Notes under the pieces: model-generated | Seen by the model: only the letters and a program-made list of their open reading frames with translations | The model's database searches: none | Told to the model about the DNA's origin: nothing | Part shown: positions 4,711 through 39,054 of the stretch, one piece after another | Layout of the letters: every line of letters starts with the position of its first letter | How positions within the stretch are numbered: the stretch's first letter is position 1 | Origin: a virus | IMG/VR virus record: IMGVR_UViG_3300013093_000043 | Coordinates: 3,681-67,680 of that record | Length of the DNA stretch: 64,000 nucleotides | Direction: 5' to 3' (one strand) | Position numbers and translations under genes: made by a program

Positions 4711-7700
4711 ATGGCTCAAACAACACGTCAAACCAGTCTGCTTGTTCAGCAAGATTGGACTAAAATTTATCAAACGTTTACCAACGCGGACTTTACCAGT
4801 TACGATTTTGAAACAATTCGTAACACCATGATAAATTATATCAAGACTTATTATCCCGAAACATTCAATGACTTTATTGAAAGCAGTGAATTTATTGCTA
4901 TCATTGACATGATCAGCTTCTTGGGACAGAGTCTTGCATTTAGAACCGACTTAAATGCACGTGAAAATTTCATTGATACTGCACAACGCCGTGACAGCAT
5001 ATTGAAATTGGCACGTATGTTGAGCTACAATCCCAATAGAAACAATTCGGCCAGTGGCCTGTTGAAATTTGACAGTATTAGAACCACTCAAGCCATAGTC
5101 GACAGTAACGGTGTCAACTTGTCAAATGCCACAATCAATTGGAACGATTTGACCAATGACAATTGGCTAGAACAATTTACCACCATATTGAATGCAGCAT
5201 TGGTTTCTAGCGAAAGTGTAGGCAAGCCAGGAAACAGTCAAGAAATAAACGGCATACAAACCAGCGAATACACAGTAAACTTGGCAACAAACGTGTTGCC
5301 AATAGCCAAGTTCACATCCACAGTCAATGGCGTATCAACTCCGTTTGAAGCAGTCAGTGCCACCAGCGTGGGACAAAATTATATCTACGAAGACGACCCA
5401 ACAAAAATTGGTGAGTTCAATATTCTTTATCGCAACGACAACAACGGCAATGGCAGCAACGACACCGGATTTTTTATCTATTTCAAACAAGGTGCACTGA
5501 ATGCCACATCGTTTACGATTCAAAATGCAGTGCCAAACAATTATGTTCCGGTGGCAACAAACAATATCACAACCGGCGATCAGTGGTTGTATGCCACCAA
5601 CGTCAACGGGGGACCAACAACCAAGTGGACTCAAGTGCCAGCACTGCCCGGAATCAATGTTATCTACAATAACGAAACAGATAAAAATTTATATCAAATC
5701 AATACCCTTACCAACGATCAAATCAATTTGGTGTTTGGAGATGGCAGTTTTAGTAATATTCCGCAAGGATCGTTTGTGTTTTACTATCGCACTGCCAACG
5801 GATTGACCTACAATATAAGCCCCAACGACCTGGCATCAGTTTCAATACCGTTGGTGTATGTGAGTGCAAATAACACTCTAGAAACTTTGACCATAACCGC
5901 CAGTTTAAAATACACAGTGACCAATGCCAATGCTGCTCCCAGCTTGAGCAGTATCAAGAGCAGTGCTCCGCAACAGTACTACACACAAAATCGCATGATC
6001 ACTGGCGAAGATTACAATATCTTTCCGCAAACTACATTTTCTAGCATACAAAAAATCAAGGCAGTCAATCGCTCGAGTAGCGGTGTAAGTTTATATCTAG
6101 ATGCGTTGGATCCTACTGGCAGCTACAGTACAACCAATATATTTGCCGACGACGGAGTACTAACTGCAAATAATACAACAAGTTCTACATCGTTTAGTTT
6201 TTTAACCACTAACGATATCTACAATGCCATTTACAATCAAATCATCCCGATAATTAGTTCTACAGAAATGCAGAATTATTACTATGCAACATATCCTAGA
6301 TATTTGGCCCCAAATGCAAACATACAAGTTAGTCAGTATTCGGTGTCAACGTCAAGCAGCACCGGCTATTTGCAAATATTGGGCAACACACAACAAGTGG
6401 GAGCAGGAGTAAGCGGCAATTTGCAATATGTAACAACTGGTGCAAGTTTGCAGTTTACTGCCAACGGAGTAACCAGTTACGCCAGCGTTTCTAACGTAGT
6501 TGCAAACAACGATATCAACACTCCCAGTCTGGTGTCGTTTGGCACAGTGGTTCCCAGTGGATCCTTACTAGATACTATTATACCAAGTTATAAAACCACG
6601 CTGACCACATCAGTTATCAATCAAATCATCACGTATATACAAACCAAAGTCAATTTTGGATTGTACTACGATCAAGTCAATCAAATTTGGGCAGTTATTT
6701 CGCCCTCGGCCATTGGTACCAGTACCAATTGGTTGATACTGTTTACTTACAATCAAGGACTCTACACAGTAACCTACAAAGAGATGAAATACACTTTTGG
6801 CAGTGCTGGTGGAACTAACTTTTATTTCGATCCTGCAGTACGAGTCTACAACAGTACCACAGGAACCACAATCACCGATTCGATAAAGGTATTGAGCATC
6901 AATACACAACCCAATGCAAATGTGTCCCTGGGGCAAGATGTAACATATCAAATATACAATACAATTACTGCCAGTGATGGCTACGTGGATGACACACAGG
7001 TTGCTGTCACCTTCCCCGATACTCAAGTACAAGGCATCCCCGACAATCCCGACTTGTTTTTTACAGTAAACGGCAACGTGCCAGCAACCGGCAATTCTAC
7101 TGTGAGAAGCAACTTGTATTTTCAATACAAACACAATACTCCGGCACGTAATCGAATTGATCCTACTCCGGTGAACATAATTGATTTATATATTCTAACA
7201 TCTTCGTATTCGACTGCGTACATCAATTGGTTGCAAGATACCACTGGCAAAGTTGTTGAACCTGATTTACCTACTGCCAGCAGTTTAGAAATAGAATACA
7301 ACGGGTTAGACAATTACAAAGCTATCAGCGACAGCATTGTGTATAACCCAGCACAATTCAAACCATTGTTTGGTTCCAAAGCGGATCCGACCCTGCAAGC
7401 CAATTTCCAAGTGGTAAAAAATCCTGCGGTGTCGATTACCGACAACGAAATAAAAACACAAGTAATTGCAACAATTAACAACTACTTTGATGTTAACAAT
7501 TGGAACTTTGGCGATACTTTTTACTTTAGTGAACTAGCAGCCTACTTGCACACCACTCTAGCTCCAAATATTTCCAGTATTGTTATTGTTCCGGCAAGTA
7601 CAAATCTAGTGTTTGGAAATTATTTTCAAATTAACAGCGAACCTTGGGAAATAATAACATCGGCAGCAACAGTGAATAATATACAAATTGTAAGTGCTGT

Positions 7701-19700: not shown

Positions 19701-19910
19701 GTCACTTCAAGCTATATAGTGAACACACGCATACTTGGCGAAGTAAACAGCAGTGGACAAATTACAGTTCCGGCTGGCACTTACTTGACTCACGGTAATG
19801 TATGGTACAGCCAAGGAGTCGCTACTCCATCAAATGGTGCCGCATTGTATCAGCAGACCACAGCACAAGCTGTATTCTTGAAAGCTTCACCTGGAGGGTA
19901 CGCACCATGA
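7749..19910 (+). CDS. Giant virion structural protein (4053 aa; baseplate wedge/fibre platform) with an FG-GAP-like propeller and CBM-like repeats
   Basis: An uninterrupted 12.2-kb ORF coupled to the gp6-like gene by a TAATG overlap. It has an N-terminal NFLPSVFQ..KFFGATLDQL motif, a YINEVKPYRT motif, FG-GAP-like repeats (~14290-15390) and W-x-x-N-T...Y repeats near the C-terminus. Confidence 0.8.
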   Translation: MSTNPSTNFLPSVFQSPTNRKFFGATLDQLIEDAQNIPLFGYIGRTFSPTYKQTDNYVPEYTTQRQHYQLEPSVIVRDADGNIQLTSGYIDLLNSIANNNGYANNHQRLFSSQAYSYDGHFDYDKFVNYYNYYWLPEGPLDNNGNPTSVPVYANQTSYQANYTVTRNTNVNGYEFSGVGNHPNLQLTLARGGTYTFQVNQGTNNFWIQTEPGVSGVNPNIATVSTRQVFGVKNNGTSSGTVTFQVPLATAQNFYAEMPIPAGAQVDAAIGFHYTDIQNQLLSVFLANFPTGLDGITSQLNGKTFVFINNDSDASYWTTPSLPAAITSTITTAPGSVIPAATRTNVWKIALVPTGTGDSVIQISPTVAVAPLNKVFVQSGITYASNEFWLNNNYLYSLVPAITANLDTLYYQDGSNPDFYGVIKLVNNNNSTIDVDKDILGSIGYTSPNGVIFTNGLKITFDSLVTPSTYANNTYYVEGVGTSIALVEANSLTVPEAYSVDIATSPDYITINRASQDLNPWSRYNRWFHKDVITATANYLGITANYGPSIVGRRPIIEFEPNLQLFNFGNQILSGIDIVSFDSTDAFVTIEGQTTATVDGQVLTHGQTIIFTNDYDTNVTNQVYQVQIENILSRNYITLVNTGVTVVEGMVVTPTAGAHRGITYHYTGTAWTTSQNKTEVIQPPRFDIVDTNGYSFSDATVYPGTTFAGTYFFGYSGYGTSSSTNDNILGFPLAYQNFNNIGDIVFSNYYDTDTFTDASGTVLINTGYLAKNYNGSVTKLNNWTKNIDPTEQYQLFTKFYDGHVITVNGAQKAFVQLDVLPAAQKTVPYLKVYLNNAILTPTVDYQQTKVGIYNVVVLTTLPNINDKIDVLVFNQRSVSRTGFYQVPDNLNLNPLNQNFNSITLGQLRTHYNKLIENTSTNSIPVQDNYLKQQGGVIVQHQAPAIYAMTFLNDPVANFVDGITLAKKEYAKFKNKFLSLCNSLTTLDYNDPITGVDTILQSINAIKNSTFPWYYSDMVPQGSVYTAIDYTVVNARQTNYEINSIFNNAELSNRAVLVWVNGVQRTVGVDYTFSQTVPAIVFSLSLNVGDTILIRDYANTDGNYIPETPTKLGLYPKFTPSIYLDTTYQTPINVIQGHDGSITPAFGDFRDQYILELELRIYNNIKADYSKNQIDLATVFPGRFRQTDYSLTEFDKILGQSFLSWAGANKLDYTSNSYFNSNNPWTWNYSKFPDVVTGAFLQGSWRAIYNYWFDTDTPNLTPWRMLGFGSMPSWWTTRYGAAPYTGGNTLLWSDLSQGYIWNDGNPYIDSGFARPGLLNFIPVDNSGNLLSPADIPLFRNTNSSNASDAFILGQQGPVETAWRRSSDYPYGVQLALAVAKPALYFSTQLDTSTFYTNPVTGQFSDSSNRKIAPGLLKINGDATSGTVKRASGYLNWIGDNIKNLGMDPVTTLTEYFSNLSVQLSYKVGGFTSHDLLTVNVEQTSPNSTNSSVVVPTNNWGVYLNKSTPIQNAEYSAVVVTKTAKGYSVSGYSPTNPFFTIIPSVNNNDSETITVNSTSVTVFNTPSKFLHSVPYGTEYTLQQTADFLVSYQRYLEQTGFIFNTFSTDLGANQDFKLSVKELIYWAQQGWEAGTVIVLNPVANLLKIDSLQSVVDEVTNVANGNKLLDQNFLPIKNNNFDIQRLQGPGLANEFVVSTIDGTGIAYAKLNLVQFEHVLVFDNVDDFGDIIYIPESGTRQYRLKLSGSKTGNWNGALSAPGYVYSSPIIDTWKSGTDYRTGDIVKHNNFYYTATQDIPAAQIFNGILWTQIQQSSIQTGLLPGLGHNAQKFVNIYDVDKPPLEEDLQLYSAGLIGFRERQYLTDLGLSIPTQTKFYQGFIKQKGSMNSVTALTKANFDNVQGNVSVYEEWALQVGRYGGVNSNNFKEFILDQSIFTTNPCAFVLTNTFSTGNIIANLTLANIYNSSNLSSTSTAIYNNRVTNRFNTDLPDVGYVNLQDVDITVFDINAYTGSVADIAVGDKIWVAKNYLGVWDILRAGSTDLVVEKITYTLDTYATVALNNSHSFKAGDLFVLKNFGHNLDNIYQIVRVPNSTSLVISITNQAVLKPLIRVLSYSGSGVVYSLFSAKYANTTDLISATVPVHGWINNDHVWIDSATALGWGVYTFNSPWASNAVIKSTALSGNVANNNYGSSVRVNSVTGNVYIGNPGAKQVQVLSSSYAFNQIIANVDAGFGSSIDVGGNVIVISASNNVQIYQTAGNTVSYVQKLTGTNNFGNSIALSGDQHWLYVGTPGSNTANVYYTANTAVSNIVYSYITTISGSGGNFAQALKTNLDGSKLFVGAPLATNGNTQAGNVYVYTRTGNAFALTQTITSQHNNQGAQFGTSLTVDALGGNLFVGVPGSTASGFQNGVVERWTNVSGTYVRNQVIAHPYTDNGTTFGSSISVTGDSEILAVGSSNSPSEEHTTFDKTALTIDANTTRFVEYINGSGVVYMFEPVVNGAVANDLGQYLFSQELETSLSSGDKFGFAVDSTRSAIAVGAPGSLNNAGAAYTFVNENNSTAWNLTRQQTPQVDINSISRTFLYNKTNNNILSALDFIDPAKGKVLSVFDRDIDFKLETDPARYNQGTGTIYTDLHWGPKQVGSIWWDISTVRAIDYEQDTLIYRLNNWGTFFPGSSIDVYQWIESTVLPSQYSANGGVGTPKDVSNASYSTYGYVTESGAVHLKYYYWVKGLDTISTNTGKANSVLSIAAGIENPQAQGIPYATILRDDAIALYNITGQLVGQSTVLQLGSQDQDARLIHNEYALVQEHNPKSTIPASILLKMIDSLSGIDAFGNAVPDVALIPSQRYGVGNRPIQTMFINQTLALNNYFSLVNQYLQAYPVVERKSLTLLNSQESIPTSDSGQYSMTVDTIEELGYINTAGLGTGYRVLVLNDSTQNTKWAIYSLLNTGKFSSTPVLVQSYKTSLYWNYTNWYDSSYDPTSNPDITVANLLELGKLTLKANTYIKVLNNGNDNFVVYYIDSNLNKNLVGIENGTIQISTGTIPAKELRQILLAMQENIFIDDLSNEYNTIFFAMINYVLTEQKNLDWVFKTSFISATQAIRKLQEFPIYTPDNQSFYLEYINEVKPYRTIVREFVADYIGNDTYASDVTDFDLPPYWDATLGVYRSPTGSQSYDSTIWQSGVYSQWYNNYSYGVVDVLIGTPGQGFLFAPQVTIAGGGGSGATAIANLNATGGIASITVLTSGQGYTSEPTIIINGTGSGAIAYPVLRNIFTGDNTGHNLVRSISTTMRFDRVDYTNSNTFVFWNTITSANVGEFIPSGTIVVNNGSLYQLTANYTVYSNLAFPANYTTITSSDFNTANDRIVAFNGNIDLSLSQSGISYPGVIVDGNTFLGNVYDTTIQSSYSDSLGVNPGDIVIDGGAYYDTFNSHAPEELIPGRVFDSTNIEVFDISGISFRIFDDMNQNHNFYRIGQSQTTLSQDLLLTDQFIHVVDASKLPQPDIVSATPGVVFVNGEKITYYRNFAFETPTAWTPNTVIATSSVVSYSNVLYLTTGNVYAGYFANITSNVVSITANTLGQIRRAVDGTSPGSLTIQPWQQFTNYPVGSYIAYSGNTYVTTGNTYAYNVSWSPNNSSLTTNSYFYYSGNVYTATGNVYGSTFAGIKANTAFVSTGTNSGFASIQANLTFKFTGTESVRHLKGQFVVDASQAQVIPGTATSNIQLRYSNTYSTTSTVSYALNLVTPVSANIGDILTQVKTITTAWTANTAFNVGTLLTDNSTGNVYTYQTTGNVYGSYFANITANVIYLFTGNTANTVTMRSLQTVTNSNVVPVIILSGAIQNLPEVFDGSLGFDANGDDSAYIIVSSSAPSTRPNVIIPLWTANTSFTIQSTIQYNSNVYTVLGNVYAPYFANISSQSNNSSNIILSSNANVFLNGPVSNYTSPGASLQVNDQWLDTVNDLVYYWTGSAWAVYTPPITGAGFDNTSSPLYINNNVTSSYIVNTRILGEVNSSGQITVPAGTYLTHGNVWYSQGVATPSNGAALYQQTTAQAVFLKASPGGYAP
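18316..19460 (+). repeat. Dispersed protein repeats W-x-(P/A)-N-T...Y-x-(G/S)-N-x-Y-x-x-(T/L)-G-N-(V/T)-Y in the giant protein (CBM5/12-like)
   Basis: Five copies: AWTPNT..YSNVLYLTTGNVY, PWQQFT..YSGNTYVTTGNTY, SWSPNN..YSGNVYTATGNVY, AWTANT..YQTTGNVY and LWTANT..YNSNVYTVLGNVY. Confidence 0.65.
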
Positions 19911-20614
19911 TAAATAACATTAATCCCGTAACTACTCAATTGAAATCGGACACAAACAAGGAAAAAACAGTGGAAAACAAGCAAAAAAGACCCAATGAAT
20001 CTGCCGGAATTTCGGTGCAAGGGCATATCAAGATATTTGATCCAGAAACCAAAGAAGTTTTTATTGACAAAAACAATGCCATTCACTATGAAAATTTCTC
20101 TGTGGCTTTAGCAAACAGTATTGCCAACAAGAGCGAAAACTTCATATACGAAATGGATTTTGGCAACGGCGGAACCAGTGTAGATCCTACCGGAATTATT
20201 ACCTATTTGCCAACCAACACAACCGGGCAAAACGCCAACTTGTACAATCCCACATACAGCAAGATTGTGGACAATACCTCAATTGCCAATCCCGATCCAG
20301 TGAACAATTACATGAGTGCCACTCACATTCCGGGCACAGTGTATACCGATATCTTGGTAAGTTGCTTGTTGGATTACGGCGAGCCTAATGGACAACAACT
20401 ATTTGACAACAGTACCAATTTGAATGGCGAGTATGTGTTTGATGAATTGGGACTTAGAGGAAAAAGCAGTGATGGCACAGTGGGCCTGTTATCAACTGGA
20501 TTATTGCTGACACATGTGATATTTCACCCGGTGCAAAAAGCTCTGAACCGATTGATTCAAATTGATTATACTGTGCGTATTCAAACTTTAACTAATTTAA
20601 GTACTCAAGGATAA
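19907..20614 (+). CDS. Virion structural protein (baseplate or fibre-attachment type)
   Basis: The start is reassigned from 19802 to the ATGA overlap at 19907; a GTG near 19970 after AAGGA is an alternative. Motifs GHIKIFDP..NAIHYEN..FGNGGTSVDPTG..YVFDELGL..LLTHVIFHPVQKALNRLIQIDYTVRI. Confidence 0.75.
   Translation: MINNINPVTTQLKSDTNKEKTVENKQKRPNESAGISVQGHIKIFDPETKEVFIDKNNAIHYENFSVALANSIANKSENFIYEMDFGNGGTSVDPTGIITYLPTNTTGQNANLYNPTYSKIVDNTSIANPDPVNNYMSATHIPGTVYTDILVSCLLDYGEPNGQQLFDNSTNLNGEYVFDELGLRGKSSDGTVGLLSTGLLLTHVIFHPVQKALNRLIQIDYTVRIQTLTNLSTQG
19911..19916 (+). promoter_or_regulatory. Putative late promoter core TAAATA
   Basis: Immediately after the stop of the giant gene, which would favour the downstream GTG start. 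Confidence 0.4.
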
Positions 20615-20618
20615 TATT

Positions 20619-22214
20619 ATGAGTTACACAATAAACACCACCAGCGGCAATGTTCTAGTAACATTGTTGGATGGAACCATTGATTCCAGCACGGGCTTAA
20701 CCTTGATCGGTCGCAATTATCCCAGTTACGGACTGTTGCAAAATGACAATTTTGTGCGATTGTTGGAAAATTTTTCTGATTCAATCCCCCCAACCCAGCA
20801 CAGTGCACTGAATCCATTAACCGGAATGTTATGGTATGATTCCGGCAATGCAACAATAAAATCATATGATAGCATAAATTGGAATCCTGTTAGCGGACGA
20901 CTTGCATCGGGAGTAGATCCAAAAACTTTAGGCAATATAACTATACATACAGGTGATCAATGGTGGGATATTACTAACCAGCAACTAAACTCATGGAATG
21001 GTACTAGTTGGCAATTGATTGGTCCAGCATACACTGCCTCACAAGGCAAAACTGGGTCTTTGGTAGAATTAGTAACAGCCACAAACTCCAATGTGTACAC
21101 AGTGGTCAACACATACACCAATGGAAATTTAGTCAGCGTTACCAGTGCCAACAGTTTCACGCCAACCGGTACTTTATATTCGGGAATTGCCACAATACGA
21201 CCTGGAGTTAATTTACCTTCAACAAATCAATTTAGCGGAAATGCCACAAACAGCTTTGCACTGGGCGGGGTGGCTGCTGCAAATTACGCCAGAACCGATA
21301 TTGCATCCGCTTTTGCACAAAGTGTTTCGGTTGGCGGTACTCTAACATTGACCAACGGAATTATTTCGTACTCGGCCGGCACGCTCACTTTGCAAAACAC
21401 AAATCTAAATGGCAATATTGCAGTTGTCACTAATACCGGCACAAATACCAATGTACTAAATGTAAACGGCAGTACAGGACTAGTTACAGTAGCCGGAGAT
21501 CCCACAAACAATTTGGGAGTTGCCACAAAACAATATGTTGACAATTCCACTTCGAATATCAACTCCGCGGTAGCAGCTCAAATATCTACCATCAACGGAA
21601 ATGTAGGGCAATTAAGAGCCGATTACTTTGCCAATATTGCTTCGGTACAGTCGGCAATAAACAGCAACGTAAACACCTTGCAGTCACAGACCATTGCCAA
21701 TACCAATATGTTAATTGCCGAGTTGGCATCTAACGTGACAACGTTTTCAGCCAACATTGCAAGTTTAAATGCCAATCTTGGCACAGTGATCTACACCGAT
21801 TTGCCACTGTTAGCCCCTTTAGCAAGCCCGTCGTTTACTGGAACACCAACAGCACCTACTCCAGCTGGTGGAGATAACAGTGGAAATATTGCCACTACTG
21901 CATTTGCGGCCAACATTTATACAACATTGTACAACGGATATCTAGGGGCAGTAAGTCAAGAAGTAACCAATAGAAATTCGGCTATAGCAACAGCTGTCAC
22001 AGGCCTGGCACCAAATGCCAGTCCGCACTTGACCGGAACACCAACAGCTCCCACACCTACCACTGGTGATTCATCTACATCCATAGCTACAACAGCATTT
22101 GTGGCCACTGCAATTACAAATGCAACTGTAACTTTCCCGCACATTACCTACGGAACTACTCCGCCGCAGAACGGTCAAGGCAACAATGGCGATTATTACT
22201 TTCAATACGTATAA
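20619..22214 (+). CDS. Tail fibre-like protein (paralog 1 of a shared N-terminal anchor domain)
   Basis: The N-terminal YT..DGT.D...L.L.G.NY..YG...N.N...LL.NF...G.LW domain is shared with 23925 and 26665. Two copies of the fibre repeat LAP.ASP..TGTPTAPTP..GD.S..IATTAF, plus ATKQYVD. Confidence 0.75.
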   Translation: MSYTINTTSGNVLVTLLDGTIDSSTGLTLIGRNYPSYGLLQNDNFVRLLENFSDSIPPTQHSALNPLTGMLWYDSGNATIKSYDSINWNPVSGRLASGVDPKTLGNITIHTGDQWWDITNQQLNSWNGTSWQLIGPAYTASQGKTGSLVELVTATNSNVYTVVNTYTNGNLVSVTSANSFTPTGTLYSGIATIRPGVNLPSTNQFSGNATNSFALGGVAAANYARTDIASAFAQSVSVGGTLTLTNGIISYSAGTLTLQNTNLNGNIAVVTNTGTNTNVLNVNGSTGLVTVAGDPTNNLGVATKQYVDNSTSNINSAVAAQISTINGNVGQLRADYFANIASVQSAINSNVNTLQSQTIANTNMLIAELASNVTTFSANIASLNANLGTVIYTDLPLLAPLASPSFTGTPTAPTPAGGDNSGNIATTAFAANIYTTLYNGYLGAVSQEVTNRNSAIATAVTGLAPNASPHLTGTPTAPTPTTGDSSTSIATTAFVATAITNATVTFPHITYGTTPPQNGQGNNGDYYFQYV

Positions 22215-22217
22215 ATT

Positions 22218-23186
22218 ATGACAATGTATGTTAATCAGGGCGGCACTTGGCGAACAATAGCCCAGCCCAAAGTAAAAGTAGGCGGCACTTGGCGAACCAT
22301 CGTTGGCGGTTGGGTTAATGTAAACGGAACTTGGCGAAGATATTATCCAGGAACAGTAGAAGCCACCATTTTAGTAGTTGGTGGTGGTGGCGGGGGTGGT
22401 ATTGGAGCCGGAGACGAAGGTGGCGGCGGAGGCGGAGGCGGAGGTGTGGTATTGGTTAACAATGTTATATTGGACGCTACTCAAACCTATGCCGTTACTG
22501 TGGGTGCTGGCGGCCCGGTTGGATCCAATGGCAAAGACTCGTCGTTTAGCGGTAGTTTTTCTGCACCGCCGGGTACAAGTCTTGGAGCAACTGCTTCATA
22601 CAGCAATGCAGTTATACCGCCCAGTGACAATATTTCAGATACCTGTTTCCCGGCCGGGTCTCAAGTGCTAATGGCCGATTTAACTTGGAAAAATATTGAA
22701 TCAGTACAAGTTGGCGAGCTGATGTATAGTGTCGATGGTCCTGCAGAATGCGTTAAAGAATATGTAACTACTCTGGGCAACAGACGCATGATAACTTTTG
22801 CTGACCAAAGTATATTTTGGAGCGAAGAACATGCATTTTGGACTAGAGAAAATGATCGTGATTGGTGGTGGAGTTACAATGCCGACAGATGGCGTGGGGA
22901 AGTCGAGCGGGGTGTGATCGGTGGCTTACTGGATAACAACAGTATTAGAACTGGAGAAATTGAACAAGAGTATGCACACGTCAATGGCTGGCGTAGACAA
23001 AAAAGTCAAGTTGCTGTGGGCATGTACTCTGAAAACTTTCCGTTGTATGTGCCACTAACCAACGGGGAACCCATTGTGGTCAATGGCTATCTTGTTGGTG
23101 CCGGAGTCAACGAGCATGCATTTGATTACACCAAGATTGATTGGGATAAAATTATAGCCCAATACAAAAACATGGAGACTGTGTAA
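22218..23186 (+). CDS. Gly-rich fibre/adhesin N-fragment fused to a C-terminal Hint domain
   Basis: Three GTWR repeats and the start of a Gly-rich domain (ILVVGGGGGGG...YAVTVGAGG..NGKDSSF). Then CFPAGSQVLMAD..KNIESVQVGE (Hint block A), SEEH (block B-like) and VNGYLVG (block G-like). Confidence 0.75.
   Translation: MTMYVNQGGTWRTIAQPKVKVGGTWRTIVGGWVNVNGTWRRYYPGTVEATILVVGGGGGGGIGAGDEGGGGGGGGGVVLVNNVILDATQTYAVTVGAGGPVGSNGKDSSFSGSFSAPPGTSLGATASYSNAVIPPSDNISDTCFPAGSQVLMADLTWKNIESVQVGELMYSVDGPAECVKEYVTTLGNRRMITFADQSIFWSEEHAFWTRENDRDWWWSYNADRWRGEVERGVIGGLLDNNSIRTGEIEQEYAHVNGWRRQKSQVAVGMYSENFPLYVPLTNGEPIVVNGYLVGAGVNEHAFDYTKIDWDKIIAQYKNMETV
22644..23100 (+). other. Hint (Hedgehog/intein-like) autoprocessing domain
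   Basis: Cys1 codon TGT at 22644. No terminal His-Asn and no endonuclease domain. Confidence 0.75.
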
Positions 23187-23611
23187 TGCCGTTTACTATT
23201 AACCCATTGGTTGCACCGGGAACAGTGATAAATGCCATTGGCGGCGGTGCTGGCGGGGCAAGTAATCTAAGTAGCCAAATTTTTGGCAATGGCAATTACG
23301 GAGCACCGGGCGGAAGTGGCGGAGGCGGATCAGGCCCGGGGCAGTATTATCCCGGCGGACCAGGGGTACCAGGCCAGGGCAATGACGGTGCCGGTGGCCC
23401 GCACGAAGCACCTGGTGGTGGCGGAGGCGGAGCTTCGGGAAAAGCTGGATCTGCTGGAGATTATACTTCGGGTGGACCGGGAGTGACTTTACTGGGATAT
23501 GCAGTAGGTGGTGGTGGTGGCGGAGGCCCCAAATATGGATCGGGCGGCGGCTTGCCTGGTGGTGGTGGCGGAGGCGGGTATGCCCCAACACCTACTGACA
23601 ATGGCGATTAG
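23186..23611 (+). CDS. Gly-rich domain, middle fragment
   Basis: TAATG-coupled to the previous gene. INAIGGGAGG...GGSGGGGSG...GQGNDGAGG...YAVGGGGGGG continues the Gly-rich domain begun in 22218. Confidence 0.65.
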   Translation: MPFTINPLVAPGTVINAIGGGAGGASNLSSQIFGNGNYGAPGGSGGGGSGPGQYYPGGPGVPGQGNDGAGGPHEAPGGGGGGASGKAGSAGDYTSGGPGVTLLGYAVGGGGGGGPKYGSGGGLPGGGGGGGYAPTPTDNGD

Positions 23612-23667
23612 TCTGGTCCCGGTGGAGACGGTATAGATTAATACAACAAGCATCAAGGGAAAATATT

Positions 23668-23889
23668 GTGGCAACTTATGATAAAAACGGACAGAACGGA
23701 ACTGGGGGCGGTGGAGCTGGATCCAGCTCGTGGAGTCAGTCGGGCGGAAGTGGCGGTTGCGGCATTGTGGTAGTGCAATATAAAGCTCCTGTTCCGTATT
23801 TTGTTGGCGGGCAAATAACCTCAGACGGAACCACAGTGACTCATGTGTTCAATTCGGCCGGAAACTTTTCGCTGAGCCCGTTGTCGTAG
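23668..23889 (+). CDS. Gly-rich domain, C-terminal fragment
   Basis: GTG start after AAGGGA. NGTGGGGAG...GGSGGCGIVVVQY...GGQITSDGTTVTHVFNSAGNF is the usual terminus of these Gly-rich domains. Confidence 0.65.
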   Translation: MATYDKNGQNGTGGGGAGSSSWSQSGGSGGCGIVVVQYKAPVPYFVGGQITSDGTTVTHVFNSAGNFSLSPLS

Positions 23890-23924
23890 CATTTTGGATA
23901 AGTATAGTATAAAGAGAACGAAAC

Positions 23925-25676
23925 ATGCCTTATACAGTAACAGCAAGCGATGGTGCAATTAATATCACAATACCCGACGGTACTGCAGATACTACCAGCA
24001 CCAATTTAACTCTGCCCGGACCCAACTATGTTGGATACGGACTACAACTCAACGAAAATCTATTGGATTTATTGACCAATTTTGCATCAAATTCGGCACC
24101 AATTGGCAATAACGTTGAAGGACAACTTTGGTTTAATAAAACCAATCAAACCCTGAATGTATTTGCCAATGTTGGTACACAAAATCAATTCATCACAGTG
24201 TCGGGAATTATAGTTGATACCAATCAGCCGGTAATTGGGCAACCGGGTAATATGTGGTACAACCCAAATACCAATCAAATTTTTATGTACTCTAATGGTA
24301 CATACAATCTGATAGCCCCGTTATACACTACACAACAAGGGCCTAGCGGGGCAATACCGGCACAGATTGGTGATCTAAATGTACTCAATGCCACACACAA
24401 TGTAATCAAGTTAGAATACGGCGGAACTGTTATTGCAACCATTAGCTCGGACAATTCGTTTCAGCCTACACCGGCCATCACTGGATTCCCATATATCAAT
24501 CAAGGTATTACGATTAACAATACACTGACTGCGACCAAATTAAATTCTAATTTGACCGGTAATGTAATAGGAAATTTAACCGGCAATGTCACTGGCAACG
24601 TGATTGGAACCACATTGGTGGGCAGTTTAACTGGAAATGTACAAGCAACTTCGGGAACTATAACCACCTTGATTAGTTCTAATTTGACTGCCACTAGCGG
24701 CAATGTAACTGGATTGGTCAATTTAAGTGCCACAAATTTGACCGCTACCAATGCTACAACCACTACACAAGTGTCTACTAACTTTAGCACCAGTAATATA
24801 TTGGTAACTGGCGGAAGTATGGCTGGATTATCTACAGTATCGGCAACAACAACGGCAACAACAAATTTAGTCACAGGAAATGCACAAATCACTGGGGGTG
24901 CAATATCAGCAACTCCAATATCAGGCAGTACCGGATCGTTTACAACTCAAGTGTCTACTAATTTCAGCAGCGGCAATGTGTTGATCACGGGCGGACATAT
25001 CAACTCGGTATCCAATATAACAACCACAACAGGAACCGTAACAAATCTAATCAGCAGCAATGCACAAATCACTGGGGGTGCAATATCAGCAACCCCAATA
25101 TCAGGCAGCACTGGAGTGTTCACAATTGCCAACATATCGCTTTTAGGGGCAGGCACAATACAAGCAGCCACTATTGGCAATGTGGGTACATTGTTAACAG
25201 GAACATTACAAACTGCGTCGCAAACCAACATAACTGCGTTGGGCAATATTACAACTGGTATTTGGAGTGCAACCACAGTGGGCACCACACATGGTGGAAC
25301 TGGACTAAACTCGTTTACTTCTGGCGGTGCGGTTTATGCCACAAGTACATCGGCACTCGCTACTGGCACACTGCCGCCAACTGCAGGCGGAACTGGAGTA
25401 GCAACATTATCGGGAGTGGTATACGCCAATGGTACTAGTGCGTTTACAGCAGCCACTGGAACACAAATAGCAACAGCCATTGGATCTGCAGCAGTAGTAA
25501 ATGCCAACAATGCAGTGGTAGCAGCCAATGCTTCGGCAGTGTCTACAACTAATTTTACTATGTATCAATCGGGTAGCAAGTTGTACTTTGCTTATAATGG
25601 CGTTCCCATAGCATCATTGGATTCAAGCGGACATTTTACTGCGGCCAATGATATTTCGGCTTTTACAACACCATAA
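23925..25676 (+). CDS. Tail fibre-like protein (paralog 2), Thr/Asn/Gly-rich beta-helix
   Basis: Shared N-terminal anchor domain, LTGNV repeats and GGTG fibre repeats. A TAAGTA motif lies upstream at 23899. Confidence 0.75.
   Translation: MPYTVTASDGAINITIPDGTADTTSTNLTLPGPNYVGYGLQLNENLLDLLTNFASNSAPIGNNVEGQLWFNKTNQTLNVFANVGTQNQFITVSGIIVDTNQPVIGQPGNMWYNPNTNQIFMYSNGTYNLIAPLYTTQQGPSGAIPAQIGDLNVLNATHNVIKLEYGGTVIATISSDNSFQPTPAITGFPYINQGITINNTLTATKLNSNLTGNVIGNLTGNVTGNVIGTTLVGSLTGNVQATSGTITTLISSNLTATSGNVTGLVNLSATNLTATNATTTTQVSTNFSTSNILVTGGSMAGLSTVSATTTATTNLVTGNAQITGGAISATPISGSTGSFTTQVSTNFSSGNVLITGGHINSVSNITTTTGTVTNLISSNAQITGGAISATPISGSTGVFTIANISLLGAGTIQAATIGNVGTLLTGTLQTASQTNITALGNITTGIWSATTVGTTHGGTGLNSFTSGGAVYATSTSALATGTLPPTAGGTGVATLSGVVYANGTSAFTAATGTQIATAIGSAAVVNANNAVVAANASAVSTTNFTMYQSGSKLYFAYNGVPIASLDSSGHFTAANDISAFTTP
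24879..25115 (+). repeat. Intragenic direct repeat with a 180-bp (60-aa) period
   Basis: aatgcacaaatcactgggggtgcaatatcagcaacYccaatatcaggcagYacYgga occurs at 24879 and 25059. caagtgtctactaa occurs at ~24768 and ~24948. Confidence 0.9.
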
Positions 25677-25677
25677 T

Positions 25678-26616
25678 ATGACTCTACCCAGCACTGGATC
25701 AATATCAATTTCCCAAGCCGATGTAGAAACTTTACAAACGCCTACTACCAGTATCAGCATGAATAACAGTTTGATTAGGTTTTTGGCCAATCACCAAACT
25801 GCAAATTCGGCTATATCTATGTCGCAATTGTATGGATCAAGTTATGTGGTTGCTGCCGGAGCATTGTTTACAACTGTTGGCAGTTATCTGTATCAATTGC
25901 CAAGAACTTCGGGCCCAACTATCAAAATAGTATCCATAGGTGGAGGTGGCGGTGGTGGCGGAGGCTCGGCACGAACTGCTCACAATCCGCGAGGACCTGG
26001 TGGCGGTGGTGGAAGCGGTGAAATTACCCTTGCTACAGTGACAGTGACTCCGGGGCAGTATATCTGGATCACTGTGGGCAGCGGCGGGACCGGCGGAGGT
26101 GCATGCGACGGGCATTACAGTCCGGGAACGTCTGGCGGAACTGGCAGCTACAGTGGAGTAAGTATAAACAATCCAGCATCTTCCTTTTCGTTGACAGCTG
26201 CGGCCTGGATCAGTCTAGCTTTTGGCGGCCTGGGCGGAGATCAGGGATACGATGTACCATTTGGTGCTGTATGCTATGGCGGTGCAGCCGGATCGGGCGG
26301 TGTAGGAACTGATATTGCCAGCTATGCTCAAGCCGGAGGAAATGCACAATACGGGGTAACATCAGGTGGTGGCACCGGTGGGCAAGGATTCAATATAACC
26401 ACTACTGTGGGAACTGAACCTACATATTCTGTAGGATCATCGGGATCGGGCGGAGTGGGCAACGATCCTGGAGGATCAACTTATGCCACTACCGGAACAA
26501 CATACGGTGCCGGGGGCGGAGGTGGCGGAACCAATAACGAATTTGCCGGCGAAGGCCCGGGAATTAACGGAGCTCCGGGATCACAGGGTGCAGTATTTGT
26601 ATGGTGGGGATACTAA
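25678..26616 (+). CDS. Gly-rich fibre-tip adhesin-like protein
   Basis: The start is reassigned to ATG 25678. MTLPSTGSISISQ..ISMSQLYG is a common fibre-tip N-terminus. An intact Gly-rich domain ends GSQGAVFVWW. Confidence 0.7.
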   Translation: MTLPSTGSISISQADVETLQTPTTSISMNNSLIRFLANHQTANSAISMSQLYGSSYVVAAGALFTTVGSYLYQLPRTSGPTIKIVSIGGGGGGGGGSARTAHNPRGPGGGGGSGEITLATVTVTPGQYIWITVGSGGTGGGACDGHYSPGTSGGTGSYSGVSINNPASSFSLTAAAWISLAFGGLGGDQGYDVPFGAVCYGGAAGSGGVGTDIASYAQAGGNAQYGVTSGGGTGGQGFNITTTVGTEPTYSVGSSGSGGVGNDPGGSTYATTGTTYGAGGGGGGTNNEFAGEGPGINGAPGSQGAVFVWWGY

Positions 26617-26664: not shown

Positions 26665-27846
26665 ATGGCATACACTATTAATCTAACCAACGGAGCAACA
26701 TTGATTCCTGGCGGATTATCTGACGGTACCGTCGACACAACACATACAAGTTTGGTATTGATTGGTAAAGATTTTGCCAACTACGGTACTTACCTAAACG
26801 ATAACTTTGTACATTTATTAGAAAATTTTGCAAATAACTCGAGCCCGGCCAATCCGCTTAAAGGTCAACTGTGGTGGGATACCACAAACAACGTATTAAA
26901 AGTCTATTCAGGCACAAGTTGGAAAATATCAACCGGTGCTACCAGTGCTCCTTTTGCAAGTCCGCCAACTGATTTGAGTCTACTGGGCGGCGATTTGTGG
27001 TTTGACACTACAAATAATCAGTTAAAAGTATATTCGGGCAGCAGTTGGATTACAGTAGGCCCTGCAGCTACTACTGCAACAGGTAATACTGGAGCATTTC
27101 CGGCCTTGATGACTGATACTTCTAGCGGAGTACACATTGTAATACAATTATTATTCAGCAATTCGTTGTATGCCGTAATATCAAAAGACACTTTTTCAAC
27201 TTCACTGTCGGGTTTTAGTCCGACAATTGTGGCTGGTATAAATTTTAGCACCACAGCCAGTCCAAGTTGGGCTTTGAGTACGCAATCTCAAAGTGCAACA
27301 AATTTGACATTGGCACAACGCGACAGTGGCGGAGGATTGACTGCCAGTACTTTTTATGCCACAACCGGCATACTGCCAACAGCCAATGCCACAGTTAATT
27401 TGGGCAGTACCACTGCTTGGTTTAACAATGTTTATGGTACAAGTTTACATGCTCAATATGCCGATTTGGCCGAACGGTTTGAAGCAGATGTAGAATACGA
27501 AGCCGGGACTGTGGTAGAATTAGGCGGGCCAGCCGAAATTACCGCGGTTGGTTCAGAATTAAGCGAAGATGTATTTGGAGTCATAAGTACTAATGCAGGC
27601 TATTTAATGAATTCTCGAGCCGGCAACAACAAAACACATCCCCCTGTAGCTGTTCAAGGCCGAGTTCCTGTTAAAGTAACCGGAAAAGTACGCAAAGGCG
27701 ATCGTTTAGTCAGTGCCGGAAATGGTTTAGCTAGAGCAGGTAAACGGTCCGAGCTGACAGCTTGGAATGTTATTGGTCGCAGTCTAGAAGATAAAACAAC
27801 AGTGGGTGAGGGAATTGTCGAAGCCGCAGTTAAGATGAACAGTTAA
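26665..27846 (+). CDS. Tail fibre-like protein (paralog 3) with a C-terminal autocleaving intramolecular-chaperone-like domain
   Basis: Shared N-terminal anchor. C-terminal AQYADLAERFEAD..GTVV..FGVIST..GRVPVKV.G.V.KGDRLVS is a peptidase G2/IMC-type pattern. Confidence 0.75.
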   Translation: MAYTINLTNGATLIPGGLSDGTVDTTHTSLVLIGKDFANYGTYLNDNFVHLLENFANNSSPANPLKGQLWWDTTNNVLKVYSGTSWKISTGATSAPFASPPTDLSLLGGDLWFDTTNNQLKVYSGSSWITVGPAATTATGNTGAFPALMTDTSSGVHIVIQLLFSNSLYAVISKDTFSTSLSGFSPTIVAGINFSTTASPSWALSTQSQSATNLTLAQRDSGGGLTASTFYATTGILPTANATVNLGSTTAWFNNVYGTSLHAQYADLAERFEADVEYEAGTVVELGGPAEITAVGSELSEDVFGVISTNAGYLMNSRAGNNKTHPPVAVQGRVPVKVTGKVRKGDRLVSAGNGLARAGKRSELTAWNVIGRSLEDKTTVGEGIVEAAVKMNS

Positions 27847-36660: not shown

Positions 36661-37673
36661 TAAAATTAGAATCACGAGACGGTCAAATTTGGAATCTTGA
36701 AAGCAAAGTAGTTGAAATTATCAATGAAGCAATTGCCACAAAAGGCAGTATTGTAATTGATTTCAACTACGAGGGGCCTTGCCTGCGTTCTTGTGGATTT
36801 TATCAATTACTAGACAGTGTAACAAAAACTTTCAATGTTGATAAATCGAGATTTGTAATACAGACTTGTAATGTGGAAGAATGTCATGATGAATATAAAA
36901 TATTGATCAAAGATAATATTTGGCTAATTGAAGCCAAAAAATTTAGTAATGTGTTGGCACAGTCAAAAAATCCCGATTTAAAAACAGTAGGTTGTTTTAT
37001 TGGAAAAACCAATTGGGCTAGATTGATATTGGTCGCCTGGCTTGATCTTAATTACCACAAGCAATCGTTATTGACCTGTCATCACAACAACAATGGCGAG
37101 ATGCATCGTTCAGCACTACAGTTATCAGAGATAATGAATCGCAGTGCCGATGACATTGATGCAGCCACAAAATTTTTAAAAACTTGTCCTAGAACTCTTG
37201 AAAAATACGAAAAAAATTCTGATTTTTTACAAAATTATAATTATTCAACAAGTACAAAATATCAAGGAAGTTTAACCACAATGAGTTCATTGACTTTTGG
37301 ATTTTCAAAAGTCTATTCAGACATATTTTGTGAATTGGTATGTGAAACTTATTACAGTGGATTGACCTTCTTCCCCACAGAAAAAACATTTAAGCCCATT
37401 ATACAACTGACACCATTTATTGTGTTTGGTCCGCAAGGCCATTTGTCCAATTTGCAAAGATGCGGATTTAGAACATTTGGCAATTACTGGGACGAAAGTT
37501 ACGATGATTTTGCTGGAATAGATAGAATAGACAAAATCAAAAAGATAATATCAACATTGTGTATGCAAACTCAAACACAATTACAAGACATGTATCATGA
37601 CATGATGCCGATACTACAACACAATCAAAATAGATTATCAAAAATCACTCCCGGGGAATTAAAACTTGGATAA
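36657..37673 (+). CDS. GT10/GT-B-like 'TEK' family protein
   Basis: ETYY..FPTEKTFKPI..PF..G..GFRTFGNYWDESYD resembles the alpha-1,3-fucosyltransferase TEK motif. Confidence 0.55.
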   Translation: MIKLESRDGQIWNLESKVVEIINEAIATKGSIVIDFNYEGPCLRSCGFYQLLDSVTKTFNVDKSRFVIQTCNVEECHDEYKILIKDNIWLIEAKKFSNVLAQSKNPDLKTVGCFIGKTNWARLILVAWLDLNYHKQSLLTCHHNNNGEMHRSALQLSEIMNRSADDIDAATKFLKTCPRTLEKYEKNSDFLQNYNYSTSTKYQGSLTTMSSLTFGFSKVYSDIFCELVCETYYSGLTFFPTEKTFKPIIQLTPFIVFGPQGHLSNLQRCGFRTFGNYWDESYDDFAGIDRIDKIKKIISTLCMQTQTQLQDMYHDMMPILQHNQNRLSKITPGELKLG

Positions 37674-39054
37674 AAGTAACTTCATGGCCAATGCCGAATG
37701 GATGCGGGACAATCTTGGACCCGCACTCTGCTTGGCCAAATGGAAACAAGTAAGCCTACACTTGCCCACCGGACTCAACAACAGTTGTTATCATCCGCCA
37801 CTGCACGCTATTGCCGCAGATCAATTAAAAGATAATCCCGGAGCATTGCATAACACCGATCACAAGAAAGCTCAACGTGTTATTATGTTAAAGAATGAAA
37901 AACCCACAGAGTGTAGTTATTGTTGGAATATTGAACAACATGGACAATTGAGTGATAGGCATTATCGTTCAGGCGAACCCTGGGCCGCAGAAGATTACGA
38001 CGCTATAGTAAATAGTACTGGAAAGGAAGACGATGTCGTACCAAGTTATGTTGAAGTTAATTTTAATCATGCCTGTAATCTTGCTTGCAGCTATTGCAGC
38101 CCTCAATTTTCTAGTACCTGGCAAGCGGAAGTTGATCGATGGGGAGGATATCCTACTAGCACTATTCATAACGACCCTAGTCACTTTGTTGGTAGAAACC
38201 GCCCTATACCTGCCAGCCATGACAACCCATATGTAACTGCATTTTGGGAATGGTGGCCTACGCTATACCCTAAACTAAAACATTTTAGAATGACTGGTGG
38301 CGAGCCACTCATGGATAAAAACACATACAAAGTATTTGATTATGTGTTGGCCATACCCAAACCCGATTTGCATCTAAATGTCACTAGCAACTTTAGTGTA
38401 GAACCTGCACTATTTGACAAGTATTTGGGATATGTCAAGCAGTTATGCAACACACAAATAGAACATTTTATGCAGTTTGTGAGTTTAGATTCGGGAAATC
38501 CCGAACATGCTGAATATATTAGACATGGTTTAAATTTTCGAAGAATGGAATGGAATGTTAATTCATTCTTACATGAAATCCCATACCGCAATAGTCTTAC
38601 GTTTATTATTACAATGAACAATCTCAGTGTATTGGGACTACAACAACAATTGGAGTGGATCCTGGCACTACGCAAGTCGTACAGTACCACATACCAACGT
38701 GTTTGGTTCGACACTCCACTGTTGCGTAAACCCGAATGGCAAAGTTTACAAATACTTCCTCCTGTATACATTGCAATGTTAGAACGTGTGGCCGACTGGA
38801 TGGAACTAAATTTAGAAACGGCCGAAGATCCATTTCATGGATTCAAAGACTACGAAGTGCAACGTATGCGTCGGGATATAGATTGGATGAGGGAAGGTAG
38901 CAAATTGGATCCTGATTATGTTAAACTACAACGTGCCGACTTTTATAGATTCTTTAACGAACACGACAAACGCCGCAAAACCGATTTCATAGAAACATTT
39001 CCGCAGATGCGAGAATTTTGGAACGAATGCGAATACCATGCCAAAAATCAATAA
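37666..39054 (+). CDS. Radical SAM enzyme with an N-terminal SPASM/Twitch-like Cys domain (1)
   Basis: CNLACSYC and TGGEP. N-terminal CLAKW..SCYHP..ECSYCW. TTG start. Confidence 0.88.
   Translation: MDKSNFMANAEWMRDNLGPALCLAKWKQVSLHLPTGLNNSCYHPPLHAIAADQLKDNPGALHNTDHKKAQRVIMLKNEKPTECSYCWNIEQHGQLSDRHYRSGEPWAAEDYDAIVNSTGKEDDVVPSYVEVNFNHACNLACSYCSPQFSSTWQAEVDRWGGYPTSTIHNDPSHFVGRNRPIPASHDNPYVTAFWEWWPTLYPKLKHFRMTGGEPLMDKNTYKVFDYVLAIPKPDLHLNVTSNFSVEPALFDKYLGYVKQLCNTQIEHFMQFVSLDSGNPEHAEYIRHGLNFRRMEWNVNSFLHEIPYRNSLTFIITMNNLSVLGLQQQLEWILALRKSYSTTYQRVWFDTPLLRKPEWQSLQILPPVYIAMLERVADWMELNLETAEDPFHGFKDYEVQRMRRDIDWMREGSKLDPDYVKLQRADFYRFFNEHDKRRKTDFIETFPQMREFWNECEYHAKNQ

Follow-up and report, generated by a model that had tools for sequence, protein, structure and literature searches.

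How does a phage cope with a fiber-tip domain that is spread over three consecutive genes, the first of which switches midway into what looks like a self-processing protein element? The question is raised by positions 22218 to 23889 of a stretch of viral DNA of 64,000 nucleotides (nt) (positions 3,681 to 67,680 of IMG/VR record IMGVR_UViG_3300013093_000043), hereafter called the window. There, three open reading frames (ORFs) follow one another on the plus strand, which also carries the parts of the locus, the flanking fiber genes, and the paralog described below: ORF1 (22218..23186; 322 amino acids [aa], frame 0, stop TAA), ORF2 (23186..23611; 141 aa, frame 2, stop TAG), and ORF3 (23668..23889; 73 aa, frame 1, GTG start). 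An initial annotation, made from the letters and the ORF list alone, had read these as one glycine-rich adhesin domain in three pieces, with a non-splicing Hint domain at the first break. Both the split domain and the non-splicing Hint hold up in our analysis; what that annotation did not foresee is that the Hint part is a C-terminal fiber module that landed in the middle of a domain, and not an intein. We lean, by a modest measure, toward an account in which Hint cleavage, translational restart, and co-folding of the pieces into one domain together make a three-gene fiber tip.

That the three ORFs encode parts of one domain is evidenced by both profiles and alignments. ORF1 aa 46 to 114 match positions 14 to 89 of the 226-position Gly_rich_2 profile (PF21722) with 39.7 bits (Pfam cutoff, 24.3), and ORF3 aa 5 to 39 match positions 189 to 226 with 20.8 bits, just below that cutoff. 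ORF2 has no Pfam match; alignment puts it on the middle of intact orthologs. One such ortholog, from the related contig L011, scores 32.9 bits on the same profile, and the pieces from ORF1 to ORF3 tile this protein and another intact relative (P0029) in order and without overlap. Read along the domain, the N-fragment of ORF1 (aa 1 to 142; 22218..22643) comprises W-x-x-I beta repeats (aa 1 to 45), the first third of Gly_rich_2, and a linker; ORF2 supplies the middle; and ORF3 completes the domain with its final glycine-rich loop and closing strands of beta structure, followed by an extension at the C-terminus. The N-fragment aligns to aa 1 to about 131 of the L011 protein and to aa 1 to about 125 of the equivalent protein in a second relative, L009. 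The unsplit paralog to which the initial annotation had pointed, at 25678..26616, indeed covers positions 1 to 223 of the PF21722 profile.

The gene break is genuine DNA, and assembly error is excluded, because contigs from independent runs reproduce its two junctions exactly. Neither a difference nor a gap was counted at either junction in the contigs from run X3 (21900-23364 and 23485-24100) and run X4 (23054-23405 and 23558-24100), which confirms the annotated break at the contig level, and a contig of a variant of about 98% (X8; 22934-23407) crosses the first junction with 8 differences and 0 gaps. All of these are assembled contigs, which show presence and leave minor variants possible. 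Near-identical DNA was sought in the phage collection, and none was found.

Comparison with relatives reveals two breaks of different age and origin, which the initial annotation had not foreseen. The slot is marked by two fiber genes, one upstream (20619..22214, 531 aa; orthologs in L009, L011, and L006) and one downstream (23925..25676, 583 aa; orthologs in L009 and L011). Between them, L011 carries a single uninterrupted ORF of 373 aa; L009 carries an ORF of 285 aa, in which the N-part of ORF1 is joined to the ORF2 part with no Hint, and a separate ORF of 80 aa with its own ATG; and the studied phage carries three ORFs. A single locus thus presents a series of one, two, and three ORFs.

The first break separates the studied phage from L009. 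Pairwise DNA alignment with this Hint-less relative, whose ORF2 counterpart is 76% identical (alignment A8), contains a single gap (columns 404 to 993), corresponding to an insertion of about 590 nt at 22603..23192. The insert consists of a 13-residue linker, the Hint, a 26-aa tail, TAA, and a GGAG-N8-ATG restart for ORF2, in which GGAG (23174-23177) is followed after 8 nt by an ATG that overlaps the ORF1 stop as TAATG (23174..23188); it holds no further ORF longer than 47 aa. It is in frame with the sequence upstream, fusing the Hint to the N-part of ORF1, and because 590 leaves a remainder of 2 on division by 3, the frame changes from ORF1 to ORF2. No convincing target-site duplication or terminal repeat and no noteworthy flanking direct or inverted repeat was found at the insert, and the source record holds one copy of the Hint and no second. 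To judge from these alignments, the ORF1|ORF2 break is a recent, clean cassette insertion.

The second break, by comparison, is shared with L009. Both phages have a TAA (23639-23641 in the window), a short spacer with AAGG(G/A)A, and a start codon 8 nt later; here AAGGGA (23655-23660) precedes the GTG of ORF3 (23655..23670), and L009 has AAGGA and an ATG at the equivalent place. The TAG that ends ORF2 (23609-23611) is lineage specific and lies 10 codons ahead of the stop used in L009, with nine codons between it and the conserved TAA (23609..23641). A programmed frameshift shared by the two phages was considered and rejected, as the frame offset between ORF2 and ORF3 is -1 here and +1 in L009; with the Shine-Dalgarno (SD) sequence and start codon kept and the offsets different, the site is a conserved gene boundary rather than a frameshift site. 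Stand-alone homologs of ORF3 are the 80-aa product of L009 and P0031, a 74-aa protein that is 82% identical and recorded on 52 contigs. The ORF2|ORF3 break is an old one, a conserved two-gene arrangement that is clearly functional in relatives. The initial annotation had taken the start signal of each piece as a sign that the split is maintained. Each piece does have its own signal, and that of ORF3 is conserved in L009 as well; L009 keeps the ORF2|ORF3 break and lacks the ORF1|ORF2 break.

Another split was seen in the related phage L006 (4309-6555), where a glycine-rich gene is also present as two ORFs (423 and 321 aa) in one frame. At its junction (5578-5592), one TAG is followed by GAGAAAAAT and then by ATG, and "TAGGAG" contains a GGAG that resembles an SD sequence and is spaced 7 nt from the ATG; the position of this break in the domain differs from those of both breaks of the studied phage. 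GAT is the codon before the stop at 23606-23611, at 23636-23641, at L009 4466-4471, and at L006 5575-5580, and it recurs early in the downstream ORF, as codon 5 of ORF3 and codon 3 of the small L009 ORF. A ribosome hop from GAT-stop to GAT was set aside as probably a chance pattern, since P0031 has no landing codon and the SD sequence and start are conserved.

What the cassette carries is a Hint domain with a conserved tail. This part of ORF1 (22644..23186) runs from Cys143 to about Gly296 and continues with a tail (the motif VNE..FDY..I.W and a helix) up to the TAA. AlphaFold2 models aa 141 to 322 with predicted local distance difference test (pLDDT) values of 94 to 98, and Foldseek ranks Tetrahymena BIL2 (6y75; E 2.4e-6, TMt 0.73) first among the matches of the model. 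At a Foldseek E value of ≤0.001, 17 PDB chains match, those listed being BIL2, inteins and mini-inteins, Hedgehog (1at0/6tyy), and a bacterial intein-like (BIL) domain from Clostridium (2lwy); the predicted structure thus has the horseshoe-like HINT fold. Sequence searches see little of this. ORF1 aa 143 to 183 match the N-terminal blocks of Hom_end_hint and Hint below the Pfam cutoffs, NCBIfam gives no match and PHROGs no family for the Hint part, PDB searched by sequence gives marginal Hint matches (the glycine-rich profile hits GGGGS-linker artifacts only), and the ESM Atlas returns generic Hint clusters only. No description of this phage fiber Hint family was found in the literature, in a search that barely covered subscription journals.

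A HMMER pass over 1.84 billion representatives nevertheless brought out a large family, with 439 cluster representatives at an E value of ≤1e-3, 185 at ≤1e-10, and 78 at ≤1e-30. Family counts given here refer to the 144 retrieved members with a near-full domain, ORF1 itself included. The match ends within 15 residues of the protein end in 117 of them, 16 to 30 residues away in 12, 31 to 60 in 14, and more than 60 in 1, so that Hint, short tail, and stop is the family norm. The parts ahead of the Hint are collagen-like repeats, complete glycine-rich domains (P0013 and P0002, the latter being L006 5590-6555), and short peptides, and gp28 of Achromobacter phage JWF has a T4 gp36-like fiber part in this place. 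Because the family normally ends fiber proteins, a C-terminal module has landed in mid-domain in the studied phage. Its closest copy, in L006, has 78% amino acid identity and a ratio of nonsynonymous to synonymous substitution rates (dN/dS) of 0.07 and is placed after a complete glycine-rich domain; the last codons of the cassette (the GGAG-ATG region) differ from that copy.

Conservation within the family bears directly on what the Hint can do. Cys143 (TGT, 22644-22646) is present in 143 of the 144 sequences, followed by Phe144 in 139. In block B, which here reads S202-E-E-H205 (22821..22832), Ser202 is found in 132 members (Thr in 10 more), Glu204 in 132, and His205 in 142, with Trp208 in 138. 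Toward the end of the core, N289 occurs in 112 (Asp in 22 more), Gly290 in 137, and Tyr291 in 133, and the tail beyond the core conserves D303 (120 members), Tyr304 (133), and Trp309 (134). Where inteins have their ...HN and the +1 nucleophile, ORF1 has NGYLVGAG (23082..23105), lacking His-Asn. At positions 294 to 296, the His-Asn and +1 sites of inteins, the 144 sequences most often have G (84), A (93), and G (81), respectively, and the three most frequent residues at each position include no His and no Asn. There is also no +1 Cys, Ser, or Thr and no C-extein, given that a 26-aa tail and then TAA follow here and that 143 of the members end no more than 60 aa past the match. With Cys1 and block B near invariant while His-Asn is absent family-wide, the Hint is most plausibly an N-terminal cleaver akin to Hedgehog Hog and B-type BIL domains, and not a decayed intein. 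The non-splicing character that the initial annotation had assigned to this one protein is accordingly a property of the whole family, and the ORFs, Cys143, the block-B His, NGYLVGAG, TAATG, and AAGGGA plus GTG are all as it had given them.

Several members of the family have an unusual part ahead of the Hint. In L007 (5530-7910) and in JWF (L004, 3077-6598), a Cys/Asn-rich part with CNCNC... repeats stands directly before Cys1, and a gene of the radical S-adenosylmethionine (SAM)/SPASM type comes next in L007; in JWF, one gene intervenes, and the enzyme is annotated as "anaerobic sulfatase-maturating enzyme". An equivalent Cys-rich run precedes the Hint in P0005, P0014, P0021, and P0022. The Cys-rich part and the radical-SAM gene could represent a system in which the Hint releases a modified peptide. 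The window itself has two ORFs (37666-41727 and 47677-49170) that weakly match radical-SAM families in PHROG (E about 1e-9), along with a carbamoyltransferase of the Nol-like kind (E 5e-93); they lie downstream of the fiber genes in a long same-strand gene run and may be modification enzymes. In L015 (953-5044), a structural protein of 1,363 aa ends in two tandem Hints, the first with ...LLVHN and the second of the ORF1 family type (...FFVNEYAVSS...FEYDTW, stop).

A second, unrelated Hint type occurs in P0025, P0026, P0027, and P0177. In these proteins, the homologs of the ORF1 N-part and ORF2 run uninterrupted to "...GGGGG" and then switch, near the place of the ORF2|ORF3 break, to a Hint that starts CFIG.ALVTLASG, has no His-Asn, and precedes a domain of about 90 aa that ends in a stop. 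Should P0025-type genes prove to have a small ORF3-like gene behind them, "Hint cassette plus displaced remainder" would be a recurrent arrangement, and the old break might itself be a cassette scar. Scans of viral contigs with ORF3 and with P0025 gave no relative, and scans of metagenome contigs with P0025 and with alignment A3 gave none; in the viral scan with A3, the sole matches were the contig of L011 and a pair of distant Hint proteins.

The nature of the split domain was approached through the intact L011 protein, whose model has a pLDDT of 68.5 and a predicted TM-score (pTM) of 0.72. With VIA-align, this model matches the fiber of cyanophage Pam3 (7ypx_A; Z 11.8, root mean square deviation [rmsd] 2.8, 162 residues aligned, 31% identity) and the Bxb1 tail tip (9d93_Qa; Z 11.6, rmsd 3.4, 162 aligned, 38% identity), and more weakly the TNF-like plus glycine-rich domain of ALK/LTK (Z 5 to 6); Foldseek with the same model gave nothing at an E value of ≤0.001. 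The Pam3 study (PMC9608196) describes a TNF-like sandwich with six glycine-rich loops in a lattice, the first and last loops being central, and proposes the variable tip as receptor binding. On the strength of the model, the split domain is a TNF-like plus glycine-rich fiber tip of the Pam3 gp24 kind, and "adhesin" is a fair reading, predicted from fold and gene neighborhood.

The cassette entered a part of this fold that seems permissive. Its insertion site corresponds to residues about 128 to 140 of the L011 protein, within a stretch (120 to 141) modeled with a pLDDT below 50, and the second break is near another low-confidence region, about 280 to 300. In P0029, P0178, P0179, and P0180, an extra domain of about 150 aa (..PVY..YNGFLNTYGVWT..) sits in the loop equivalent to the Hint site. 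Because these more distant intact relatives carry this domain at the equivalent place, the loop evidently tolerates inserts and can be regarded as an insertion hot spot.

In the mechanism that we favor, ORF1 would be made as a 322-aa precursor in which Cys143, aided by S202 and H205, would make an N-to-S acyl shift at Thr142-Cys143 and yield a thioester. Resolution of the thioester, most simply by hydrolysis, would free the 142-aa N-fragment, with the Hint and its tail being discarded. ORF2 would arise from coupled reinitiation at the GGAG-N8-ATG that overlaps the ORF1 stop, and ORF3 would be translated from its own conserved SD sequence and GTG. The three chains would then co-fold into one nicked fiber-tip domain, in which the central loops of the ORF1 N-fragment and ORF3 would pack together and ORF2 would continue the sheet beside the DSSF strand. 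Cleavage and restart, in place of splicing, would in this way let the Hint insert itself at almost no cost to the gene.

Co-folding was assessed by complex prediction with ORF1(1-142) as the scored partner, together with ORF2 and ORF3, using custom alignments. The complex scored 0.89 (runs of 0.90, 0.89, and 0.87) versus 0.67 for the best of three controls; substituting the partner brought two of these controls to 0.00, and in the 0.67 control, ORF2 was replaced and the partner still docked on ORF3. In calibration, 58 of 80 solved complexes passed the mark, as did 2 of 110 mismatched pairs, counts that hold only roughly because custom alignments were used here. At least 89% of contacts recur between runs, and the pLDDT of the partner is at least 76. 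The closest contacts, of ORF3 33 to 37 (GIVVV) with ORF1 50 to 54 and of ORF2 15 to 17 with ORF1 107 to 110, are those that would be expected of a nicked single-chain domain, although the pass may reflect likeness, as structures have been solved for relatives of this fold. Reassembly of the three pieces in trans, proposed in the initial annotation, is thus supported, rather than demonstrated, by this model and by the purifying selection on the pieces described next.

Selection was gauged at two distances. Against L009, the proportions of nonsynonymous and synonymous differences (pN/pS) are 0.19/0.60 for the N-part of ORF1, 0.16/0.73 for ORF2, and 0.23/0.84 for ORF3, with synonymous sites near saturation; for the upstream 531-aa and downstream 583-aa fiber genes, they are 0.18/0.70 and 0.17/0.67. 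Because the values of the pieces resemble those of the flanking fiber genes, the comparison shows a two-gene form that purifying selection has maintained. On the time since the Hint insertion, only the X8 variant is informative; of the 24 differences on its three contigs, 17 were classified and compared with permutations that place the same base changes randomly. Listed differences are synonymous in 5 of 5 cases for ORF3 (p=0.007), in 3 of 5 for ORF2 (p=0.13), in 8 of 10 for ORF2 and ORF3 combined (p=0.003), and in 11 of 17 overall (p=0.008).

The most serious competitor to this mechanism, though in our judgment an unlikely one, is insertional inactivation: the cassette would have killed the gene, ORF2 and ORF3 would be decaying, displaced remnants comparable to the orphan modules left behind a C-terminal cassette that has just been inserted, and the paralog at 25678-26616 would cover for the loss. 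A number of observations weigh against the favored mechanism, several of them on the side of inactivation. The arrangement is unique to the lineage, the mid-domain Hint being found in the phage's own protein alone among 29 matches examined, and an insertion confined to one lineage may be too young for decay to show. ORF2 is shortened by nine codons through a TAG that is premature relative to L009, the intact paralog 2 kb downstream could mask a loss of function, and the N-fragment modeled alone appears disordered, with a pLDDT below 50 over aa 46 to 128. Among strains, the Hint part gives no signal of constraint, with 3 of 7 listed X8 differences synonymous (p=0.52). Moreover, the pN/pS comparisons with L009 and L006 sum both lineages and leave the time since insertion unisolated; the X8 contig with ORF3 is unlinked to the Hint and may therefore derive from a Hint-less relative; and all of the RNA evidence comes from a single metatranscriptome contig of 236 nt (23140-23375) that might stem from carried-over DNA.

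Nevertheless, none of the three pieces contains a frameshift or an internal stop. The Hint is fused in frame with the N-part of ORF1, and its stop coincides with a well-spaced GGAG-N8-ATG. The excess of synonymous changes in ORF2 and ORF3 also speaks against inactivation, as the X8 contig with ORF2 is joined to the Hint, and the ORF2|ORF3 split is clearly functional in relatives. Cleavage, restart, and co-folding therefore remain our preferred account.

A variant of that mechanism retains all of its steps but passes the thioester to an amine or other nucleophile, leaving the N-fragment covalently attached to ORF2, a virion protein, or a small molecule; the initial annotation had raised such a ligation, and we consider it improbable. 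The best structural match of the Hint, BIL2 (6y75), is an isopeptide former that, according to PMC8616854, links a Lys epsilon-amine to a C-terminus, and the conserved tail (D303, Y304, and W309) stands where Hedgehog has its sterol-recognition part, as laid out in PMC7765530. The tail is only about 26 aa long, however, and the present data fit hydrolysis equally. ORF2, moreover, begins with Met-Pro and has no N-terminal Cys, which makes rejoining of the native-chemical-ligation type unlikely. By analogy with BIL2, there is a slim chance that the family at large (at least 439 clusters) is a phage device for covalent, ATP-free attachment, in which the thioester at the end of the fiber part is passed to an amine of a partner chain or virion protein, much as BIL2 uses ubiquitin-like domains. 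If so, the N-fragment would be stitched onto the reassembled three-piece tip or fiber, and the cassette would be a transposable "cleave-and-conjugate" module that splits and rejoins receptor-binding domains. A thioester passed to a partner would also mean a new way of making covalent links in virions and a natural protein-conjugation tool.

Far less probable still is a single polypeptide, made by read-through, frameshift, hop, or TAG recoding, from which the Hint is spliced out. The GAT-stop pattern before both breaks, with GAT early in ORF3 and in the small ORF of L009, and the L006 split by one in-frame TAG would be in keeping with it. However, the Hint family lacks His-Asn and a +1 Cys, Ser, or Thr; the ORF2|ORF3 offsets of the two phages disagree while the SD sequence and start codon are conserved; and P0031 has no Asp near its start. 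Recoding of TAG was rejected in its own right: TAG is a rare but ordinary stop that ends 4 of the 57 ORFs of at least 120 aa, the remaining genes are unbroken under translation table 11, and no tRNA gene was found in the scan.

Finally, the chance that false frameshifts arose in glycine codon runs through assembly or sequencing is negligible, for even though this is a metagenome contig with a CheckV completeness of 19% and G-rich repeats do break assemblies (loose ends near 22370-22400 and 23505-23580), X3 and X4 come from other samples and years and agree at both junctions, X8 crosses the first without a gap, and L009 keeps the second. Many contigs of unrelated origin touch the locus only at those two glycine codon runs (22370-22400 and 23505-23580), as loose ends and depth spikes; short words there are common to glycine-rich fiber genes of other phages, a likely cause of broken assemblies in such genes.

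Set beside known systems, the Hint resembles the Hog domain of Hedgehog in closing a precursor at its C-terminus with a HINT fold, in having Cys1, a block-B (T/S)xxH, and a short extra region past the core, in having no C-terminal Asn cyclization and no extein ligation, and in fold (1at0/6tyy, TMt about 0.61). It differs in its phage and bacterial context, in a tail of about 26 aa in place of a sterol-recognition region, and in a sequence likeness that is limited to the N-terminal block and below the Pfam cutoff. B-type BIL domains are described, in PMC7765530, as having the intein motifs minus the C-terminal one, cleaving their N-terminal flank, and occurring in hypervariable proteins; by this description, the motif set and the variable-protein setting fit. 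BIL2, the best structural match, differs in keeping a C-terminal Asn, judged from the N143A mutant in the entry title only. Unlike BIL domains, the Hint here ends proteins and, in ORF1, interrupts a domain.

As a gene in pieces, the closest counterpart is nrdA of phage Aeh1, split by mobE. Crona et al. 2011 (PMC3045599) report separately translated pieces that reassemble, with insertion-made sequence becoming part of them. Both cases involve a phage gene cut by an insert, and here the insert is discrete and an uninterrupted ortholog occupies the equivalent locus (L011, and L009 for the first break). In contrast, the insert here is neither a homing endonuclease gene nor an autonomous mobile element but a putative self-cleaving domain joined to the N-part of ORF1, and the product is a fiber tip rather than an enzyme, with reassembly predicted by a model. 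Inteins and the split-intein "fractured genes" (PMC2677866) likewise have a HINT element in frame in a host gene and genes broken into ORFs. Unlike inteins, however, the Hint here has no His-Asn or +1 nucleophile and has a stop inside its own frame, and unlike split inteins, it is complete on one side, and ligation is not expected.

Fiber tips of the Pam3 gp24, Bxb1 tail-tip, and S16 gp38 type share the TNF-like sandwich and glycine-rich loop lattice of the intact L011 model, but they are single chains rather than the products of three genes, and they have a helical shaft where W-x-x-I beta repeats are found here. Peptidase_S74/G2-type intramolecular chaperone domains are self-removing C-terminal modules of phage fibers. 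The Hint would be like them in that respect and is unlike them in its unrelated fold and other chemistry; a chaperone role for the Hint is conjecture. In the window, a 393-aa fiber gene after the paralog (26665-27846) matches Peptidase_G2, the "IMC autoproteolytic cleavage domain", with 23.8 bits (cutoff, 25), and two kinds of self-removing C-terminal module may thus coexist in the fiber cluster.

Hog- and BIL-type Hints and glycine-rich fiber tips are already known, as are split phage genes, Aeh1 nrdA/mobE among them. What is new is, first, that the inserted element is itself a protein domain predicted to remove itself, with the upstream piece fused to it and a restart behind it; second, the graded series in which a single locus holds one, two, or three genes; and third, the size of the Hint family and its uniform C-terminal placement in phage fiber proteins. 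The series offers a dated natural record of how a receptor-binding fiber-tip domain is broken into separately encoded chains. The insertion suggests a route by which a gene may tolerate an insert without splicing, with the Hint cleaving off the upstream piece and a restart codon supplying the downstream one. A large Hog/BIL-like family that ends phage fiber proteins, scoring below the Pfam cutoffs, has also been brought out. For phage engineering, the locus indicates that glycine-rich adhesin tips could be assembled from fragments.

The source record is a viral metagenome contig of 67,680 nt, and the runs that contain the locus are labeled freshwater or lake metagenomes. The neighboring genes include those for the hub and the wedge of a baseplate (phrog_10646, E 1e-284, for the wedge), a giant fiber-like protein of 4,053 aa, and several fibers, and the region is the baseplate and tail fiber cluster of a large freshwater myovirus-like phage. 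In a promoter and terminator scan, counts were as in shuffles (24 versus 22.4 and 10 versus 9.6). The listed starts of the ORFs at 19802-20614 and 25648-26616 are probably too far upstream. The ORF of the paralog opens at 25648, and its likely start, by comparison with L011 5439-6389 (start MTLP...), is the Met at 25678; for 19802-20614, relatives begin at equivalents of MINN... (L009 1324 and L011 224).

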